Below, one piece after another: positions 5,331 through 64,000 of a stretch of DNA of 64,000 nt. Origin of the DNA: a phage. How positions within the stretch are numbered: position 1 is the stretch's first letter; each line of letters opens with the position of its first letter. Both the position numbers and the translations under genes were made by a program. The notes under the pieces are model-generated. The model searched no databases. It was not told where the DNA came from and worked only from the letters and a program-made list of their open reading frames with translations. The DNA lies in the sequence record PV730299.1; one strand, 5' to 3'.

Positions 5331-5413
5331 GGTGTTCCTCGGGTTTGTTTACGCAGGTTTTATTATACGCCACCCTCGTAGATTGAAGGCGGCGGGGAGG
5401 GTTGGCGAGTTAC

Positions 5414-6256
5414 TTAAATGTCGTACAGATCGTTGACTTCCAGCATCAGGCGGGTGAAGTCGCCGCGCCCGTTGCGGTCAGACTTGTCGAACTCGATGAT
5501 ACTGAACGGCTGAACCCATTCAGGGTACTCATCACCGACGCCAACACCATCGATCTTCAGGGTTCCGGCCTCCAGCTTGGCGTTGAAGTCGCGGAAGGAA
5601 CTGACGTACTTTTCAAGGGCGCTGTCGCGCAGGCGCTTGTTGGACTGTTTGATGTCACCGTTGACAAAGATGTAAGTCGAGTCAGATGCGCGGGTCAGTA
5701 GGTTCTTCAGCTGCTCCATATCACATTCCTGCGCTTCTTCAATGATCAGGAAGGTGTCGTCAAAGGTCATCCCCTTGATGGTCTCCAGATCCTGGATCTC
5801 AATGATCCGCTTCTCCCACAGATAGTTGAAGAAACCGTCGCTACCTGTGTCAGTCTTCAGCACCTTCTTCAGCGTCTGAATCAGGGGCATCAGATATGGC
5901 ATCAGCTTTTCGTATGTGTCGCCAGGGCGGAAGCCTGCAGTCTGGCCTGTTGGCAGCGGAGAGCGCGTGATGACGATCTTACTGACCACTTTATCGATCA
6001 GGAGCTTGGCGGCGGCTGAGGCACCGCAGTACGATTTACCTGTACCGGCAGGACCGATTGCGATAGTGAGGTTTTCTTCAAGAGCAGATTGATATGCGAG
6101 GTTCTGATTCTCTGAGAGGCCATTGAACGGAGCGATTCTGAAGTCACCTTTAGAGAACTTCATCCAGTCATCTTCTTTCTGAATTGTCTCTTTCTTACGT
6201 GCTGACTTGGTCTTGCCCGCTGGCTTCTTACTTACAACTTTGGTGGCAGATTGCAT
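5414..6256 (-). CDS. phoH: PhoH-like ATPase
   Basis: 280 aa; Walker A GPAGTGKS and PhoH-family layout. Confidence 0.9.
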   Translation of the reverse strand: MQSATKVVSKKPAGKTKSARKKETIQKEDDWMKFSKGDFRIAPFNGLSENQNLAYQSALEENLTIAIGPAGTGKSYCGASAAAKLLIDKVVSKIVITRSPLPTGQTAGFRPGDTYEKLMPYLMPLIQTLKKVLKTDTGSDGFFNYLWEKRIIEIQDLETIKGMTFDDTFLIIEEAQECDMEQLKNLLTRASDSTYIFVNGDIKQSNKRLRDSALEKYVSSFRDFNAKLEAGTLKIDGVGVGDEYPEWVQPFSIIEFDKSDRNGRGDFTRLMLEVNDLYDI

Positions 6257-58521: not shown

Positions 58522-59055
58522 TTAGAGAGACTTGTCTGAAATGGCCTGGAAGTAACGCAGGTCAACAGTGAACTGAGTATAAGAGTCCATTGCAGACATG
58601 TCCAGTTCCAGCTGACCGAGGTTCTGAGGCCAGGTGCCCTGAAGGGTCCAGGTCTTGGTGACGTTGTCGTTAGCATCCAGCAGTTCCATGATTACATCAC
58701 GGAAATAATCATCTGGGTTAGCAGACGCACGGTTGTTGTTGCTGCCGTTGATATACTGCTGCCAGACTTCGAATGCGTTGTACGGGGCGTTGTCCACGAC
58801 GTTGATGAACGTCACAGGCAGAGCCTCGAAGCGGCGGTCACCTGGGAATGGAAGTTCACGACCACCCCATGGGACGAGTATTTCCCCGAGCTGGCCTGTT
58901 GGGGTATTTGTGGTCACCGCCAACAGCGAAACATCACGGATAGTATCGCTTCCAGCCACGAAGGAAGGGAAGTTAACAGTCACACGCCAGCGGTGTTGGC
59001 GCTGAACGCCGCCCCCGCGTGACATAGCTGCTCTGAATTCATTAACTGTAGCCAT
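58522..59055 (-). CDS. 19: tail tube protein, T4 gp19-like
   Basis: 177 aa; C-terminal GQLELDMSAMDSYTQFTVDLRYF parallels T4 gp19 GELQLDWDSNNEIQTFEVTLALDYWE. Confidence 0.8.
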   Translation of the reverse strand: MATVNEFRAAMSRGGGVQRQHRWRVTVNFPSFVAGSDTIRDVSLLAVTTNTPTGQLGEILVPWGGRELPFPGDRRFEALPVTFINVVDNAPYNAFEVWQQYINGSNNNRASANPDDYFRDVIMELLDANDNVTKTWTLQGTWPQNLGQLELDMSAMDSYTQFTVDLRYFQAISDKSL

Positions 59056-59075
59056 TATAGATTCTCCAGAAAGAG

Positions 59076-59771
59076 TTACACAATTCTAATTAGCTGCCAA
59101 CCCGTCGTGTTCAAACGCTCTGCGGTCGCAGTTTTCCTATGATACACAGACGGTGGTGGAACTGGAATACCCTTGTCGATGTAATCATAGAGTGCTGAAT
59201 ATTTAAGTCCCAACCTCTCCACATATTCACGACAGTTCCCGTGGATTTCGTGTTCTTCGCCGGAAGGAGATACCAATTTGAATCGCTTGGCATTGGAGTT
59301 TTTGGATCCGATTCTGCTCTTTGCAAATACAGATAAACTCTTCGAGAACGAACGTTTGACTCCGGTCTTACAATGTATCAGTTCCCCTGTAGCCCACCTT
59401 GGGTCATCACAGCCAACAAGACCAATTCGCTCTCCTGTTGACGCATCAATAGCACCTGTCTTTCCATAGAATGTCGCACCGTCACCACCCCAAGTTTTGT
59501 TGTACCCTTTCAGGGACATGTGGGTGCCATGCTGCTTAATCAATATGATCTCTAATTCTTTCAAGTCTTTCAGGGACTTGGTCTGGGCTATCACCTGTAC
59601 AGAAAATAATTCTTCTCCATATTTGCGGATAGCCTGATGAACAAAGTAACCAGAGCCGTTTTGAGCGCTGTTACAATGTTCCCACCACCTATCGATGGGA
59701 TCACGCGTGGTGATCCCGATATAGGCTTTCTGATTGACTAGATTTGTAATTTTGTAAACACTTCCGATCAT
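59076..59771 (-). CDS. GIY-YIG homing endonuclease (free-standing, between sheath and tube genes)
   Basis: 231 aa; N-terminal VYKITN...KAYIGIT (GIY...YIG), conserved Arg and Glu/Asn of the catalytic domain, C-terminal basic DNA-binding region. Confidence 0.8.
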   Translation of the reverse strand: MIGSVYKITNLVNQKAYIGITTRDPIDRWWEHCNSAQNGSGYFVHQAIRKYGEELFSVQVIAQTKSLKDLKELEIILIKQHGTHMSLKGYNKTWGGDGATFYGKTGAIDASTGERIGLVGCDDPRWATGELIHCKTGVKRSFSKSLSVFAKSRIGSKNSNAKRFKLVSPSGEEHEIHGNCREYVERLGLKYSALYDYIDKGIPVPPPSVYHRKTATAERLNTTGWQLIRIV

Positions 59772-59855
59772 TTCGATGCTCTCTCAGTAAAATCGTTCCA
59801 TTTTAACCCGCGAGAGACCATTGAAATGCCCTCCGAAGAGGGCATGAGGGGTAAA

Positions 59856-61751
59856 TCAAGAAGCAGCGACGATACCACCGCCGGATTCGATCTCACTGAA
59901 TTCCATGTCTGGACGCACGGAAGCAAAATCTAAAAATATCCAATTAATACTGTACTCTGGTTTCAGCCAGATACCCGCGACCATCTGGTTCGCAGCGATG
60001 ATGTCGGCGGTGTTGTTGTCCTCGTCACACTTCACCATCCCGTCATAGATCGCGCCCATGTTGGCCAACTGGCGGATATATGGGCGGACAGCGTTGCTGA
60101 ACAACCCACGAGTGAATGCATCGTTGTTCTCACCAAGGTAGTATTTGGCGATGGCTGCGATGTTCTGCTCTGCCATAATGAACAGACCACGAACGTTGAT
60201 GCGGTCGAACGCAGATGGGCGGGTCAGGCCAGTCTTGTCGCCGTACAACACGATGCCTTCGTTGGAGAAGGTGACGATGCTGTTGATCTGGTTGCGATAC
60301 AACACAGCACGCTCATCAGAAGACGCAGACCACGCCATTCGATTATAGTTGTTGTATTTACCACGGTTGTGGAACGCTGGAGACTTGTAGATACCCGCGA
60401 TTTCAATGCTTCGCGCCCAAACACCTGCGGTGCCACCACAAGCCGGAATCCAACGCATTTTGTCGTTGTACTTGTCGTACACATACGCCCAGTTGTCATC
60501 CATGAAGAAGTAGGAGGAGTCGCGAACAAGGCTTTCACGCCAGGCCACAACATCATCCATCTCACGGCCACGGTTTCCGACGACCGTATCGCGAAGAGGA
60601 GACACGAAGGACACTGTGTCTTTACGCTCGGTGGACAGGTCGATCAGTGCCTGCTGCTCAATCAGTTCTTCACAGAAACCGAACACTGGCTTGGCATCAT
60701 ACGCTTCGGCGTTGTTCAGTGCCTGGATAGCCGCAACACGGTTCCCAGTGTAATCGTCTACACCACCTTCGAGTTCAATGACACCAGCAGCCAGGGTAGT
60801 GGCGAAGGTGTACACCCAATTTGAGGTGCCGTTGATCACGTCTTTGAAGTACGCATTGGATCCATCAGATTTCTTAGAACCCTGAGCGGTCTGCACCAGT
60901 TCATACTTCTCGATGATCGTACCGGAAGCACCAACAGTGGTGACGGCAGCGGTAGCAGTCAGACCATTCGCGTCTGGAACAATCGCAGTCGCAGCCTGAG
61001 GACCGATTGCTTTGTGAGTGACGGTGACGGTGTTGGACTTCACGACAACAGAAGAATACACGCTAGACAGAGACGTCAGCGCAGTTCCGATCTTTGTCGC
61101 CAGAGTCGCCGGGGTGTCAGCGTCAGTGTATGCCACGGCTTCCCCAGCAACAGAGATGGAACCAGCAGCGGTGGCAGTACCGGATACAGAGATACGATCA
61201 ACCTGACTAACAGCGCCAGAAGAGTCGGTAATGCGACCTACTTTGTCAACGATGGCGATATGGTACTCGCCATCCTGCGGAGCATATGCGAAGTTGTTAC
61301 GGAATTCCCAGGTCGGGAACAGCGCAGCGTCACAGATGTTCACAGCAATGTCGTTACCCAGAGAGCCAGCATAGCGGCCTGTCCAGGTAATAGACGCAGA
61401 TGGGGACGCAGTTTCGAAGTCTAGTTTGTTGCGGATAAGGATTGCAGTCTGACCTTTGGTTACAGCGTTGCGTGCCGCCGGACCGACCACACGGGTCACC
61501 CATGCAACAGAGCTGTAAGACAGGAAGTCAGCAATCACCAAGAAGTCGGTGGCAGTTGCATCGTTTGGCTTGAAGAATTTCTTCACCAGACCAGTTTCGC
61601 CACCAGTGACCAACACAGGGAGTTCTGCTTCACCCCATTGGAATTTGCCGACAGTCGCACCCTGAACAACAACGGATGGAGACGTCTGAAGCGTGGCATC
61701 ACGCTCAGTCCACTGTACGGACGGCGCAACGCTGAAGCTTTGAGTTGCCAT
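59856..61751 (-). CDS. 18: tail sheath protein, T4 gp18-like
   Basis: C-terminal blocks DKYNDKMRWIP, YGDKTGLTRPSAFDRINVRGLF, AFTRGLF are collinear with T4 gp18 (DKYNDVNRWVP, YGDKTATSVPSPFDRINVRRLF); start taken at MATQSF. Confidence 0.9.
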   Translation of the reverse strand: MATQSFSVAPSVQWTERDATLQTSPSVVVQGATVGKFQWGEAELPVLVTGGETGLVKKFFKPNDATATDFLVIADFLSYSSVAWVTRVVGPAARNAVTKGQTAILIRNKLDFETASPSASITWTGRYAGSLGNDIAVNICDAALFPTWEFRNNFAYAPQDGEYHIAIVDKVGRITDSSGAVSQVDRISVSGTATAAGSISVAGEAVAYTDADTPATLATKIGTALTSLSSVYSSVVVKSNTVTVTHKAIGPQAATAIVPDANGLTATAAVTTVGASGTIIEKYELVQTAQGSKKSDGSNAYFKDVINGTSNWVYTFATTLAAGVIELEGGVDDYTGNRVAAIQALNNAEAYDAKPVFGFCEELIEQQALIDLSTERKDTVSFVSPLRDTVVGNRGREMDDVVAWRESLVRDSSYFFMDDNWAYVYDKYNDKMRWIPACGGTAGVWARSIEIAGIYKSPAFHNRGKYNNYNRMAWSASSDERAVLYRNQINSIVTFSNEGIVLYGDKTGLTRPSAFDRINVRGLFIMAEQNIAAIAKYYLGENNDAFTRGLFSNAVRPYIRQLANMGAIYDGMVKCDEDNNTADIIAANQMVAGIWLKPEYSINWIFLDFASVRPDMEFSEIESGGGIVAAS

Positions 61752-61803: not shown

Positions 61804-64000
61804 TCACCGTCTCAGCCATTCTTCCATAGACATACCAGAGCGTTCATCATAAACCTGAATTCCACCGAACCCTGGGATGTTCTCCACAGAGTGAGGATCT
61901 GGCGTCGACATCATACCCCCAAATGGTAGCATCTGAGATTCTTCCATCGCAGACAACCGTCCTCTCATGTCCACAGAGATATTTGAATTGGTGAGATCAC
62001 TAAACCATTCTTGTTTCACCGCCCATGCATACAACACGAGGGGCATTACACAGTCATCATGACAACCATCATCGGCTTCATACCTTGTTCCAGTCCATAC
62101 GAATGTACTGAGTTCATCTATCGTGTCCTGGTCATCTATCACCAGCATTTCACGTTCAATCAGGGCTTTCAGGTTGGCACAGCCGTTTGTGCGCACCTTC
62201 TTGTTGGTATTGATACCAGGCTCAGGGCGGCGACCACCGATTCTCTTGCCTGTACCCTTGGTATCTGTTGTAGTGAATATGATCTCGGGATATTCAATTT
62301 CCTGATATAGAATTGTGATTACCTGACCACCCACGTCGTTGTTGGTCTCGACTAGCATCGGGCACGTTCCATACTTCTCACCCATATCGGCGATTGTGTA
62401 CGCGTACATCATTGGAGGTATCGTGTTATTTCGATACTTGGCTGCGATCTTGTGAGGATAGTCTGTGATGTCGATAATGGTCAGCACAGAATAATCCCCT
62501 TCGACACCCTTGCCTGTATCTGCGATACCCATATAGATGCGTTTAGGATCGTAGTCGTGATAAATCTTGGTGAACTCGTTCGGCTCCTGATACAGCTTCG
62601 AGGTCATCTTGTCCAGACACTTGGCAGGTATCAGTGATCCCACAGAACCACGGAACTTAATGCCAAATTCTTGATCGAAACGTGCATCACCCAGCTTCGC
62701 CCTCTGTTTGGATTCCCAGTCTGGATCTTTGGTGTACGTTGGAACACGATACCATGGGACCTCTGTGAGTTTGAAGTCGTTGTATTGTGGATGTTCTGGG
62801 TTCGCCTTGGTGACGATGTCGTAGAACAACCCGCGCTGACCTTTCGGCGTACTGGTCAGAATACAACGTGAAGTCTCTGCAGATGCAATCGCCGGGAATG
62901 TAGACTCCCAGAATTCAAAGTCGTTTTCAATGAACGCCACTTCGTCCACATACAGGAGCGATACAGATCGACCACGGATGGAGTCGGAAGATGTCGCATA
63001 GGCGTAGATCTTTGATCCGTTTTCGAACTCGATCAGCGTGGAACCGAACTTCTCACAACCCTGTTGGAGGAAGAATGGCAAATCTTGATATGCTTTGCGA
63101 ATACGATCTAGGATTTCAATCGCCTGCTTCTCTTTGTTCGCCAGTACTGCGATCTCTTTGTCGGAGTGGAACATCGCATACCAGAGCAGGAACGCTGCCA
63201 CGACAGTCGTGTTGTGGCTGAGGAAGCCGTTGGTGTAGTAGCGCTGATCACTAGATTTCACCTGTAGGTCATACATGTGATGCGTCTCACCAGTCTGCCA
63301 AACCTCACGGATTTCTTCTGGACCTTCTGACGTCATGATGTATGACCCAGCATTCAGGTCTTTGGCAAATATCTCCTTCATTTCCGGAGTGAAGAACATA
63401 TGTTCATCGGCCACGTTAATTCGCCGCCCAGTAACAGTCACAATAACGAATTCCGCATATTTCTTCGTCTTATGCGCTGCGATAACCGGAACCCAGCCAC
63501 TATCGGATTGCACAAAGTAACGTTTGCCGAAGCGGCTGTCCACGAACTTGTCATGGTTGCCAATGGTATTCAGCGGCACAGCGTGGTTGACGTCCTCGAA
63601 GCGGCTGTGAAGCTCCCCTATGGTCAGGAGCAACTGCTCTTGGCTGAGAGTATCGTAAACTGTGACAAGCGTGTCACCTTTTACACATTTCCCAGACTGA
63701 CGAGCCTGGACGACCGCATTGAATCGATAGTCCTGGAAGTCATGGAACAACTGCTTCTGATAATCGTGCATGTCAAAGAGGATGAAGCCTTTATCGATGG
63801 TCGTGATCTTGTAGTAGTTGGCGGCGAAGTAATGGGCGTCCATCGCGCACTCGACGAACTCCGATTCCTGCTCATCTGTTAGCATCAACTCCACACGAGG
63901 AGCGCGCACAGACGGCTTGCGCATGAACGTTTGGTCCATACGCAGTCTGACGTCTTCTGTCTTAAACCCCGTCTTGAGCGGGGCGTATTCCACATCACGC
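61804..64000 (-). CDS. 17: terminase large subunit, T4 gp17-like, containing a mini-intein; 5' end runs off the window
   Basis: Nuclease/ATPase blocks collinear with T4 gp17 (KDKAVGILAHK, LIEKDKLIIHH, EEGYHDDLVMSLV vs EKEIAVLANK, LIEREMLVID, DDGCHDDCVMPLV); reading frame still open at the window edge (the track M at 63993 is a GTG). Confidence 0.9.
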   Translation of the reverse strand, partial: RDVEYAPLKTGFKTEDVRLRMDQTFMRKPSVRAPRVELMLTDEQESEFVECAMDAHYFAANYYKITTIDKGFILFDMHDYQKQLFHDFQDYRFNAVVQARQSGKCVKGDTLVTVYDTLSQEQLLLTIGELHSRFEDVNHAVPLNTIGNHDKFVDSRFGKRYFVQSDSGWVPVIAAHKTKKYAEFVIVTVTGRRINVADEHMFFTPEMKEIFAKDLNAGSYIMTSEGPEEIREVWQTGETHHMYDLQVKSSDQRYYTNGFLSHNTTVVAAFLLWYAMFHSDKEIAVLANKEKQAIEILDRIRKAYQDLPFFLQQGCEKFGSTLIEFENGSKIYAYATSSDSIRGRSVSLLYVDEVAFIENDFEFWESTFPAIASAETSRCILTSTPKGQRGLFYDIVTKANPEHPQYNDFKLTEVPWYRVPTYTKDPDWESKQRAKLGDARFDQEFGIKFRGSVGSLIPAKCLDKMTSKLYQEPNEFTKIYHDYDPKRIYMGIADTGKGVEGDYSVLTIIDITDYPHKIAAKYRNNTIPPMMYAYTIADMGEKYGTCPMLVETNNDVGGQVITILYQEIEYPEIIFTTTDTKGTGKRIGGRRPEPGINTNKKVRTNGCANLKALIEREMLVIDDQDTIDELSTFVWTGTRYEADDGCHDDCVMPLVLYAWAVKQEWFSDLTNSNISVDMRGRLSAMEESQMLPFGGMMSTPDPHSVENIPGFGGIQVYDERSGMSMEEWLRR
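63211..63687 (-). mobile_element. mini-intein (about 159 aa) inserted in the Walker A P-loop of the terminase large subunit
   Basis: Host sequence QARQSGK / TTVVAAF reconstitutes the P-loop GKT when the segment is removed; the insert begins with Cys (CVKGDTLV) and ends with His-Asn followed by Thr (GFLSHN/T), the class 1 intein boundaries. Confidence 0.75.

Follow-up and report, generated by a model that had tools for sequence, protein, structure and literature searches.

A GIY-YIG homing endonuclease gene that stands free between tail sheath and tube genes in an Agtrevirus-like phage and probably spreads by intronless homing

Introduction

In phage T4 nothing lies between genes 18 and 19. 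What, then, is the gene that stands between the tail sheath and tail tube genes in the phage DNA of sequence record PV730299.1, and how does it persist there? An initial annotation described it as a 231-aa GIY-YIG endonuclease gene with its own SD sequence, preceded by a hairpin, and took it to be a Seg-like mobile gene inserted into a conserved structural operon. We have analysed the 64,000-nucleotide stretch that contains it (the "window") together with the corresponding region of related phages. Our preferred reading, to which we give a probability of about 80% on the basis of sequence comparison, is that it is an intact free-standing GIY-YIG homing endonuclease gene, with the sheath gene's terminal hairpin on one side and the tube gene's promoter and ribosome binding site on the other, and that it is spreading by intronless homing. 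The open reading frame, the fold and catalytic residues of its product, a presence/absence polymorphism, a signal of lateral exchange, purifying selection and a local spike of diversity were all observed at this locus.

Results

The phage and the genes at the locus

The last 25 kb of the window are 97-98% identical to Escherichia phages A221, PC3, AV101 and RPN242; for Shigella phage Ag3 and Salmonella phage SKML-39 the figure is about 90%. On sequence grounds the source phage is Vi1-like and a member of the Ackermannviridae, subfamily Aglimvirinae, and is Agtrevirus-like. One public record carries a label that looks inconsistent: Enterobacter phage fGh-Ecl02 (ON212266; our locus L032) is listed as Cvivirinae/Kuttervirus, yet its region is 96-100% identical to the Aglimvirinae-like window. 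The three genes at the locus are:

59856..61751, minus strand: tail sheath gene (true ATG at 61751, 631 aa; PHROG 23, E 1e-112; Pfam sheath domains)
59076..59771, minus strand: free-standing GIY-YIG homing endonuclease ORF (ATG at 59771, TAA at 59078..59076, 231 aa)
58522..59055, minus strand: tail tube gene (PHROG 45, E 4e-57; Pfam T4 gp19)

The large terminase subunit gene lies upstream of the sheath gene and the portal gene downstream of the tube gene, and this terminase-sheath-tube-portal region is a T4-like late structural block. Both the sheath and the tube ORFs are intact and collinear with those of phages whose junction is empty (below). The endonuclease gene is a stand-alone ORF in the intergenic gap (sheath stop at 59856 to tube ATG at 59055) and is outside any intron or intein; its reading frame is closed by a TGA 15 nt ahead of its ATG, the tube ATG is 20 nt past its stop codon, and its GC content is 45%, lower than the 53% of the genes on either side.

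The large terminase gene (61804..>63993, minus strand) has an insert of its own, a 159-aa mini-intein at 63211..63687 that splits the Walker A motif (borders ...ARQSGK / CVKGDT...FLSHN / TTVVAAF), for which the Pfam Intein_splicing model gives 29.8 bits, under its cut-off. The terminase of a distant relative (L042) is 580 aa long, about 150 aa short of the 736-aa terminases of close relatives, which judged by length only would fit absence of the intein.

The endonuclease protein

The 231-aa protein matches Pfam GIY-YIG (PF01541) over aa 3-88 (E 3.4e-8, 34.1 bits against a curated cut-off of 22.6 bits) and PHROG 314 "homing endonuclease" (E 1.5e-38); length, coordinates, domain and strand context agree with what the initial annotation had said of the gene and its place between sheath and tube. 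Three parts can be distinguished:

59478..59771, minus strand: N-terminal GIY-YIG catalytic domain, aa 1-98 (Y6, Y17-I-G, R28, H32, E74, N91)
59292..59477, minus strand: variable linker, aa 99-160 (indels, pLDDT 51-68 in several blocks, nearly unalignable between some alleles)
59079..59291, minus strand: C-terminal putative DNA-binding module, aa 161-231 (beta-hairpin, HTH-like LGLKYSALYDYIDKG, terminal R-x-NTTGW)

The GIY motif reads S-V-Y6 and the YIG motif Y17-I-G19, and the catalytic residues can be equated with those of the solved I-TevI domain as follows (I-TevI second): Y6=Y6, Y17-I-G=Y17-V-G, R28=R27, H32=H31, E74=E75 and N91=N90. Across 22 aligned orthologs of 45-99% identity none of the six catalytic positions varies. 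The same alignment was used for an AlphaFold2 model, which has a mean pLDDT of 79, with 85-92 in the N- and C-terminal thirds; it displays the alpha/beta GIY-YIG fold at the N-terminus and, at the C-terminus, a beta-hairpin followed by a helix-turn-helix-like element and the conserved R-x-NTTGW ending. The modelled layout thus appears to be nuclease, variable linker and putative DNA-binding module, as in I-TevI and the Seg enzymes. No Pfam family, NUMOD included, matches the C-terminal half, and in the ortholog alignment this half has no conserved four-cysteine motif or Zn finger, its two cysteines being non-conserved. A PDB profile search for a match to the I-TevI DNA-binding domain recovered the catalytic domain alone; weak matches to the SafA pilus in the same search were judged spurious.

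The protein belongs to the GIY-YIG superfamily and is structurally closest to I-TevI. The Pfam SegE_GIY-YIG model (PF19835) gives it 18 bits, below the 25-bit cut-off, in an alignment of only 20 residues, and membership of the T4 Seg family is not demonstrable by sequence; "Seg-like" should be understood as describing a mode of working and not descent. In that sense the initial annotation's Seg-like mobile gene holds up, since what would be expected of one at the sequence level was found, while kinship with the T4 Seg family was not. We found no paralog of the endonuclease elsewhere in the window; a 33-aa match at 5375-5473, inside a neighbouring 280-aa ORF, was judged spurious.

Occupancy of the sheath-tube junction among relatives

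Is the gene a fixed part of this structural block? We measured the sheath-to-tube gap in 34 loci drawn from GenBank, IMG/VR and this window, and found that it spans 63 to 2725 nt. The junction is empty, with a gap of 63-78 nt, in Ag3, P46FS4, EspM4VN and L022, and in MK-13, like Ag3 a Shigella boydii phage, the sheath and tube genes are contiguous; the gap is 800 nt in the window versus 78 nt in the empty alleles of P46FS4 and Ag3. The comparison with relatives without the insertion, which the initial annotation had suggested as a check, thus turned up empty-site alleles (Ag3, P46FS4, MK-13 and EspM4VN) and not the uniform presence that would have spoken against it. An ortholog fills the gap in ChubbyThor, RPN242, CECAV_050, AV101, fGh-Ecl02, SKML-39, "barely" and others, so that presence and absence are polymorphic at one site among close relatives, with empty alleles known from within the genus. 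By tblastn, a copy of at least 60% identity is found in 49 of the 268 matching phage records; an exact 18-mer search of IMG/VR gave no alleles beyond the loci already in the set.

Other nearest relatives carry unrelated cargo at this junction: two small ORFs in LHE287 and ZQ1, and an opposite-strand endonuclease of about 600 aa with DUF7487/DUF559 domains in ZQ1 and PC3. In Kuttervirus and Taipeivirus genomes a truncated 151-aa GIY-YIG paralog adjoins the tube gene, with or without the ortholog, and some of these phages have opposite-strand 264-290-aa GIY-YIG proteins or a chimeric 235-aa GIY-YIG protein.

Over our loci L001-L043 the junction (window 59056..59855) is a cargo hotspot with at least seven states: (1) empty; (2) the 225-245-aa GIY-YIG gene; (3) the truncated 151-aa GIY-YIG gene; (4) the chimeric 235-aa GIY-YIG gene (L006); (5) an opposite-strand 264-290-aa GIY-YIG gene with NUMOD3; (6) the opposite-strand DUF7487/DUF559 endonuclease gene of about 600 aa with 100- and 125-aa ORFs; and (7) a 3-kb block of small ORFs (L042). 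The R-x-NTTGW C-terminus is common to several of the junction nucleases.

Anatomy of the junction

Where exactly does the additional DNA begin and end? A five-way alignment of the window, two empty alleles (P46FS4 and Ag3) and two filled alleles gave the following picture:

59828..59843, minus strand: UUCG-loop hairpin GCCCUC-UUCG-GAGGGC, 12 nt past the sheath stop (6 bp, extendable to 8 bp, 59826..59845)
59094..59818, minus strand: segment of about 722-725 nt missing from empty alleles (left border ...GGGCAUUUCA(A/U)UG, right border CUAAUUAG...)
59087..59093, minus strand: CTAATTA, putative late promoter of the tube gene, one mismatch to CTAAATA, inside the last endonuclease codons

The left-hand block that the window and the empty alleles have in common begins at the sheath stop, takes in the hairpin and extends to AUUUCA(A/U)UG (to about 59819). 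On the right, common sequence restarts at CUAAUUAGAAUUGUGUAA (from 59093), which is the endonuclease's last six codons plus stop, and empty alleles therefore keep the last 18-24 nt or so of the endonuclease ORF. Because this stretch is retained, some empty alleles could, judging from the alignment, be deletion products and not naive targets.

The hairpin has no U-tract and was not scored as a terminator. It is invariant in 11 filled alleles and is also found in the empty P46FS4 and Ag3; because empty alleles carry it, it belongs to the 3' end of the sheath gene and lies outside the insert. The hairpin that the initial annotation placed ahead of the gene is thus real, but goes with the sheath gene.

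Two alternative hairpins follow the sheath gene in this group of phages (for example in L005, L006, L008, L010 and L028): GCCCUC-UUCG-GAGGGC without a U-tract, and CCCCGC-UUCG-GCGGGG followed by a U-run, a canonical terminator. The former goes with this endonuclease, with some empty alleles and with a few loci that have other cargo (L002, L003, L029 and L019), the latter with other cargo types.

At the right-hand border CTAATTAGAATTGTGTAA is common to the window and the empty alleles, and relatives (L007 and EspM4VN) have the canonical CTAAATAG at this place. All eight copies of CTAAATA in the window are on the minus (late-gene) strand (9919, 15129, 15716, 42178, 46608, 49805, 55547 and 61800), where 3.5 copies would be expected over both strands, and six of the eight are 24-45 nt upstream of an SD and ATG, including those ahead of the sheath and scaffold genes; the CTAATTA variant occurs at 59093 and 58486 (minus strand). 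CTAAATA is probably the late-promoter core of this phage. On that assumption the endonuclease gene is squeezed in precisely where one late transcription unit ends and before the promoter of the following one, with the end of the ORF lying within the tube promoter.

Such a position raises the question of whether the protein might have a different primary role. It could bind the junction or promoter and so repress or modulate the tube gene, much as I-TevI represses its own expression, or it could be a non-specific nuclease directed at the DNA of the host or of competitors. That the ORF terminates within the putative tube promoter would suit a regulator, as would the fact that the C-terminal putative DNA-binding module is the most conserved part of the protein among near relatives. 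However, the sheath and tube genes are the same in phages with empty or other-cargo junctions, which argues that the endonuclease gene is dispensable, and beyond its position no data suggest regulation. We regard a different primary role as very improbable.

Lateral exchange and selection

Has the gene shared the history of the genome that carries it? Nucleotide identities to the window are very different in different parts of the locus. In the near-isogenic phages RPN242, CECAV_050, AV101 and fGh-Ecl02 the flanks are 98-99% identical to the window, the N-domain 81-87%, the linker 78% or unalignable, and the C-terminal third 97-99.5%. The corresponding values for the Kuttervirus "barely", which belongs to another subfamily, are 74-82% for the flanks, 87% for the N-domain, 91.6% for the linker and 92.5% for the C-terminal third. 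Synonymous divergence from these near-isogenic phages follows the same pattern, with dS values of 0.56-1.9 for the N-domain and 0.02-0.1 for the C-domain. Because the identities of gene and flanks are discordant, the history of the gene is unlike that of the backbone, with a breakpoint inside the ORF. This discordance is what lateral spread would be expected to leave, and the window allele, as far as these identities tell, is a mosaic whose linker is nearest to the Kuttervirus copy and whose C-terminal third is nearest to the Agtrevirus-like neighbours.

The dN/dS ratio, taken from pairwise comparisons with unsaturated dS only, is about 0.1; the nuclease domain gives 0.03-0.12, and neither the C-terminal domain nor the remainder exceeds 0.3; since these ratios are low, the protein is maintained by purifying selection. 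They bear on whether the gene could be a decaying or inactive homing endonuclease relic that no longer cuts and has not yet been deleted. Two observations would suit a relic: many Kuttervirus and Taipeivirus genomes have, at this junction, the truncated 151-aa paralogs, which are without the DNA-binding region, and the SD sequence of the window gene is weak and predicted to be paired (below). Against this, the window ORF is full length, its six catalytic positions are invariant in the 22 orthologs, and the low dN/dS values extend over both its nuclease and its C-terminal domain. We therefore think it highly unlikely that the window gene is a relic.

A further alternative is that this is a long-resident, essentially vertically inherited nuclease gene, occasionally deleted, which owes its persistence not to homing but to some advantage for the phage, such as the exclusion of co-infecting relatives or another late function. 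Orthologs of 45-59% identity sit directly after the sheath gene in distant relatives, and such deep orthologs at one site are compatible with a conserved target and also with long vertical residence. In L040 and L041 the start of the ortholog overlaps the sheath stop, which suggests translational coupling, and a vertically inherited gene would also accord with the strong purifying selection, with the last 18-24 nt of the ORF held by empty alleles, and with the 35-aa C-terminal remnant retained beside the tube gene of Dickeya phage LIMEstone1. On the other side, similarity of the gene and similarity of the backbone are uncorrelated, the Kuttervirus copy being closer than copies in genomes that are 98-99% identical; a recombination breakpoint lies inside the ORF, and a diversity spike is found only beside the site (below). 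The promoter-like tube motif, moreover, explains the 3' sequence common to the empty alleles. We consider this alternative unlikely, if the least so of the three, and it differs from homing mainly in emphasis, since marker exclusion and homing are one biochemical act.

A diversity spike at the 3' end of the sheath gene

Homing would be expected to leave traces in the DNA next to the insertion site as well as in the gene, and one stretch of the sheath gene stands out in this respect:

59856..60005, minus strand: last 150 nt of the sheath gene, polymorphism hot zone, candidate co-conversion and target region

Among 10 near-isogenic phages nucleotide diversity is 0.10-0.20 in these 150 nt versus at most 0.025 further upstream, a 10-20-fold rise, and the tube gene is at baseline (apparent diversity on the right side beyond +550 was ignored as an artefact of ungapped comparison across an indel). 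The changes are nearly all synonymous and leave the protein sequence almost unchanged. The pair ChubbyThor (filled) versus P46FS4 (empty) illustrates this at the level of individual positions: their flanks are about 99% identical, and of the 17 mismatches in 1800 nt of left flank, 7 cluster within the final 46 nt of the sheath gene (-46 to -4). A spike of this kind is the trace that would be expected of repeated double-strand-break repair with co-conversion from diverged donors, and would point to cutting on the sheath side.

The sheath 3' ends of filled and empty alleles were also compared to find the target. No fixed nucleotide difference separates the two classes in this region, and sheath 3'-end haplotypes are not strictly linked to cargo type. 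With no such substitution to mark the target, these 150 nt are a candidate region for it, and the mechanism that would protect a carrier is a guess.

Expression of the endonuclease gene

How might such a gene be expressed from within a late structural block? Between the sheath stop and the endonuclease ATG there is no CTAAATA, no TATAAATA and no sigma-70-like site, and with no promoter-like site ahead of the ATG, the mRNA most likely arises by read-through from the sheath gene. Three kinds of promoter were considered and set aside. Of the T4-type late promoter, TATAAATA, the window has just two copies, neither of them close to the gene, so that the motif is essentially absent; a scan for sigma-70 promoters gave no more matches than in shuffled sequences and none upstream of the endonuclease; and the TTAAAAT and TACAATA of relatives, considered as an internal promoter in the loop, match CTAAATA poorly.

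As an SD sequence the gene has only GAGAGAG (59785..59779), a weak one, spaced 7 nt from the ATG, and it is predicted to take part in a helix:

59770..59827, minus strand: predicted long-range RNA helix, AUUUC.AUG.UCUCUC (59827..59812) with GAGAGA.CAU.GAAAU (59785..59770)

In both the minimum-free-energy fold and the alignment fold this helix would take up both the SD-like GAGAGAG and the first two nucleotides (AU) of the start codon. The gene's "own SD" of the initial annotation is accordingly present, and what needs qualifying is its strength and its accessibility. RNAalifold retained 12 consensus pairs in all 11 alleles examined, and three Kuttervirus alleles keep the helix pairs although their loop is deleted to 5 nt. 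No covariation was seen in the 11 alleles, the sole change being C-G to U-G; conservation of the helix could merely reflect conservation of the sequence, and the alignment neither proves nor disproves it. Hairpins that sequester the ribosome binding site have been documented for I-TevI, I-TevII, I-TevIII, segB and mobE (PMC2988022), and the helix predicted here resembles this regulation of T4 endonuclease genes (PMC2988022).

Discussion

A proposed mechanism

The observations above are most simply assembled as intronless homing. The gene would probably be transcribed by read-through of the sheath late transcript past the hairpin that has no U-tract, as no promoter of its own can be recognised, and translation would probably be low with the weak SD and the AUG paired in the predicted helix. 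When a carrier and a relative with no copy of the gene infect one cell, the C-terminal module would recognise the relative's unbroken sheath-tube junction and bring the nuclease domain tethered to it close enough to cleave the DNA, most likely on the sheath side. Repair of the break by recombination would then insert the gene, along with some neighbouring sheath 3' sequence; intronless homing with co-conversion has been described for the T4 Seg enzymes (PMC2988022). Our best guess is that a carrier would escape cleavage because in its own genome the junction sequence is split by the insertion.

Could the junction as a whole be an arena of cassette exchange, in which competing endonuclease genes have a common C-terminal DNA-binding module (with the R-x-NTTGW ending) and swap nuclease and linker modules, and even orientation? 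We offer this as a tentative idea that we doubt more than we believe. If it were true, one cassette would replace another through cleavage within roughly the final 150 nt of the sheath gene, with synonymous diversification of an essential structural gene and breakpoints inside the endonuclease ORF as consequences.

Meaning and comparison with known systems

The finding is real and its interpretation is supported, yet it is ordinary and already known. As a discovery the gene has little weight: selfish genes of this sort are well understood, and the phage family was already recognised as rich in them. The LIMEstone1 paper describes 14 homing endonucleases in an Ackermannviridae genome, one of them beside the tail tube gene (PMC3296691). 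A 99%-identical protein is present in NCBI, and orthologs of 77-93% identity at this junction are annotated "homing endonuclease", and also "GIY-YIG endonuclease", in RefSeq and GenBank. A literature search of limited coverage found no experimental work and no cleavage or homing assay for the protein or its orthologs. The value of the result is in annotation, where the gene should be seen as dispensable cargo and not as a tail component, and in the material that it identifies. Ag3 and P46FS4 (empty) versus ChubbyThor and AV101 (filled) are natural near-isogenic pairs for the study of intronless homing outside T4, and the multi-occupant junction with its sheath 3' spike would make a compact case study of endonuclease genes shaping an essential structural gene.

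The closest counterparts are the Ackermannviridae orthologs at the same junction: "barely" YP_009888547 ("homing endonuclease"), ChubbyThor gp196, RPN242 gp149, CECAV_050 gene 144, and those of SKML-39 and phiMAM1. They share with the window gene its strand and position, a length of 225-245 aa, 63-93% amino acid identity, the upstream hairpin and the context of the ATG. A different occupant of the same junction in the same phage family is F-LimVIII of Dickeya phage LIMEstone1, a mobile endonuclease gene upstream of the tail tube gene, within the structural module (PMC3296691). Unlike the window gene, it encodes a "Hef-like" DUF7487/DUF559 protein of about 600 aa on the opposite strand and is not GIY-YIG; of the window endonuclease family LIMEstone1 keeps just the 35-aa remnant.

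Compared with I-TevI of the T4 td intron, the window gene is not inside an intron, the C-terminal half of its product is without a Zn finger and a Pfam NUMOD match, and no late promoter is visible inside its hairpin. The T4 genes SegA-SegG are like it in being free-standing and intergenic and in encoding an N-terminal GIY-YIG domain and a C-terminal DNA-binding region (PMC2988022; putative here), and also in their presence/absence polymorphism in relatives (PMC2988022). Flanking co-conversion is described for them as well (PMC2988022), and the sheath 3' spike is a possible, indirect sign of it here. They differ from it in that the window protein, judged by the Pfam SegE model, has no detectable specific sequence kinship with them.
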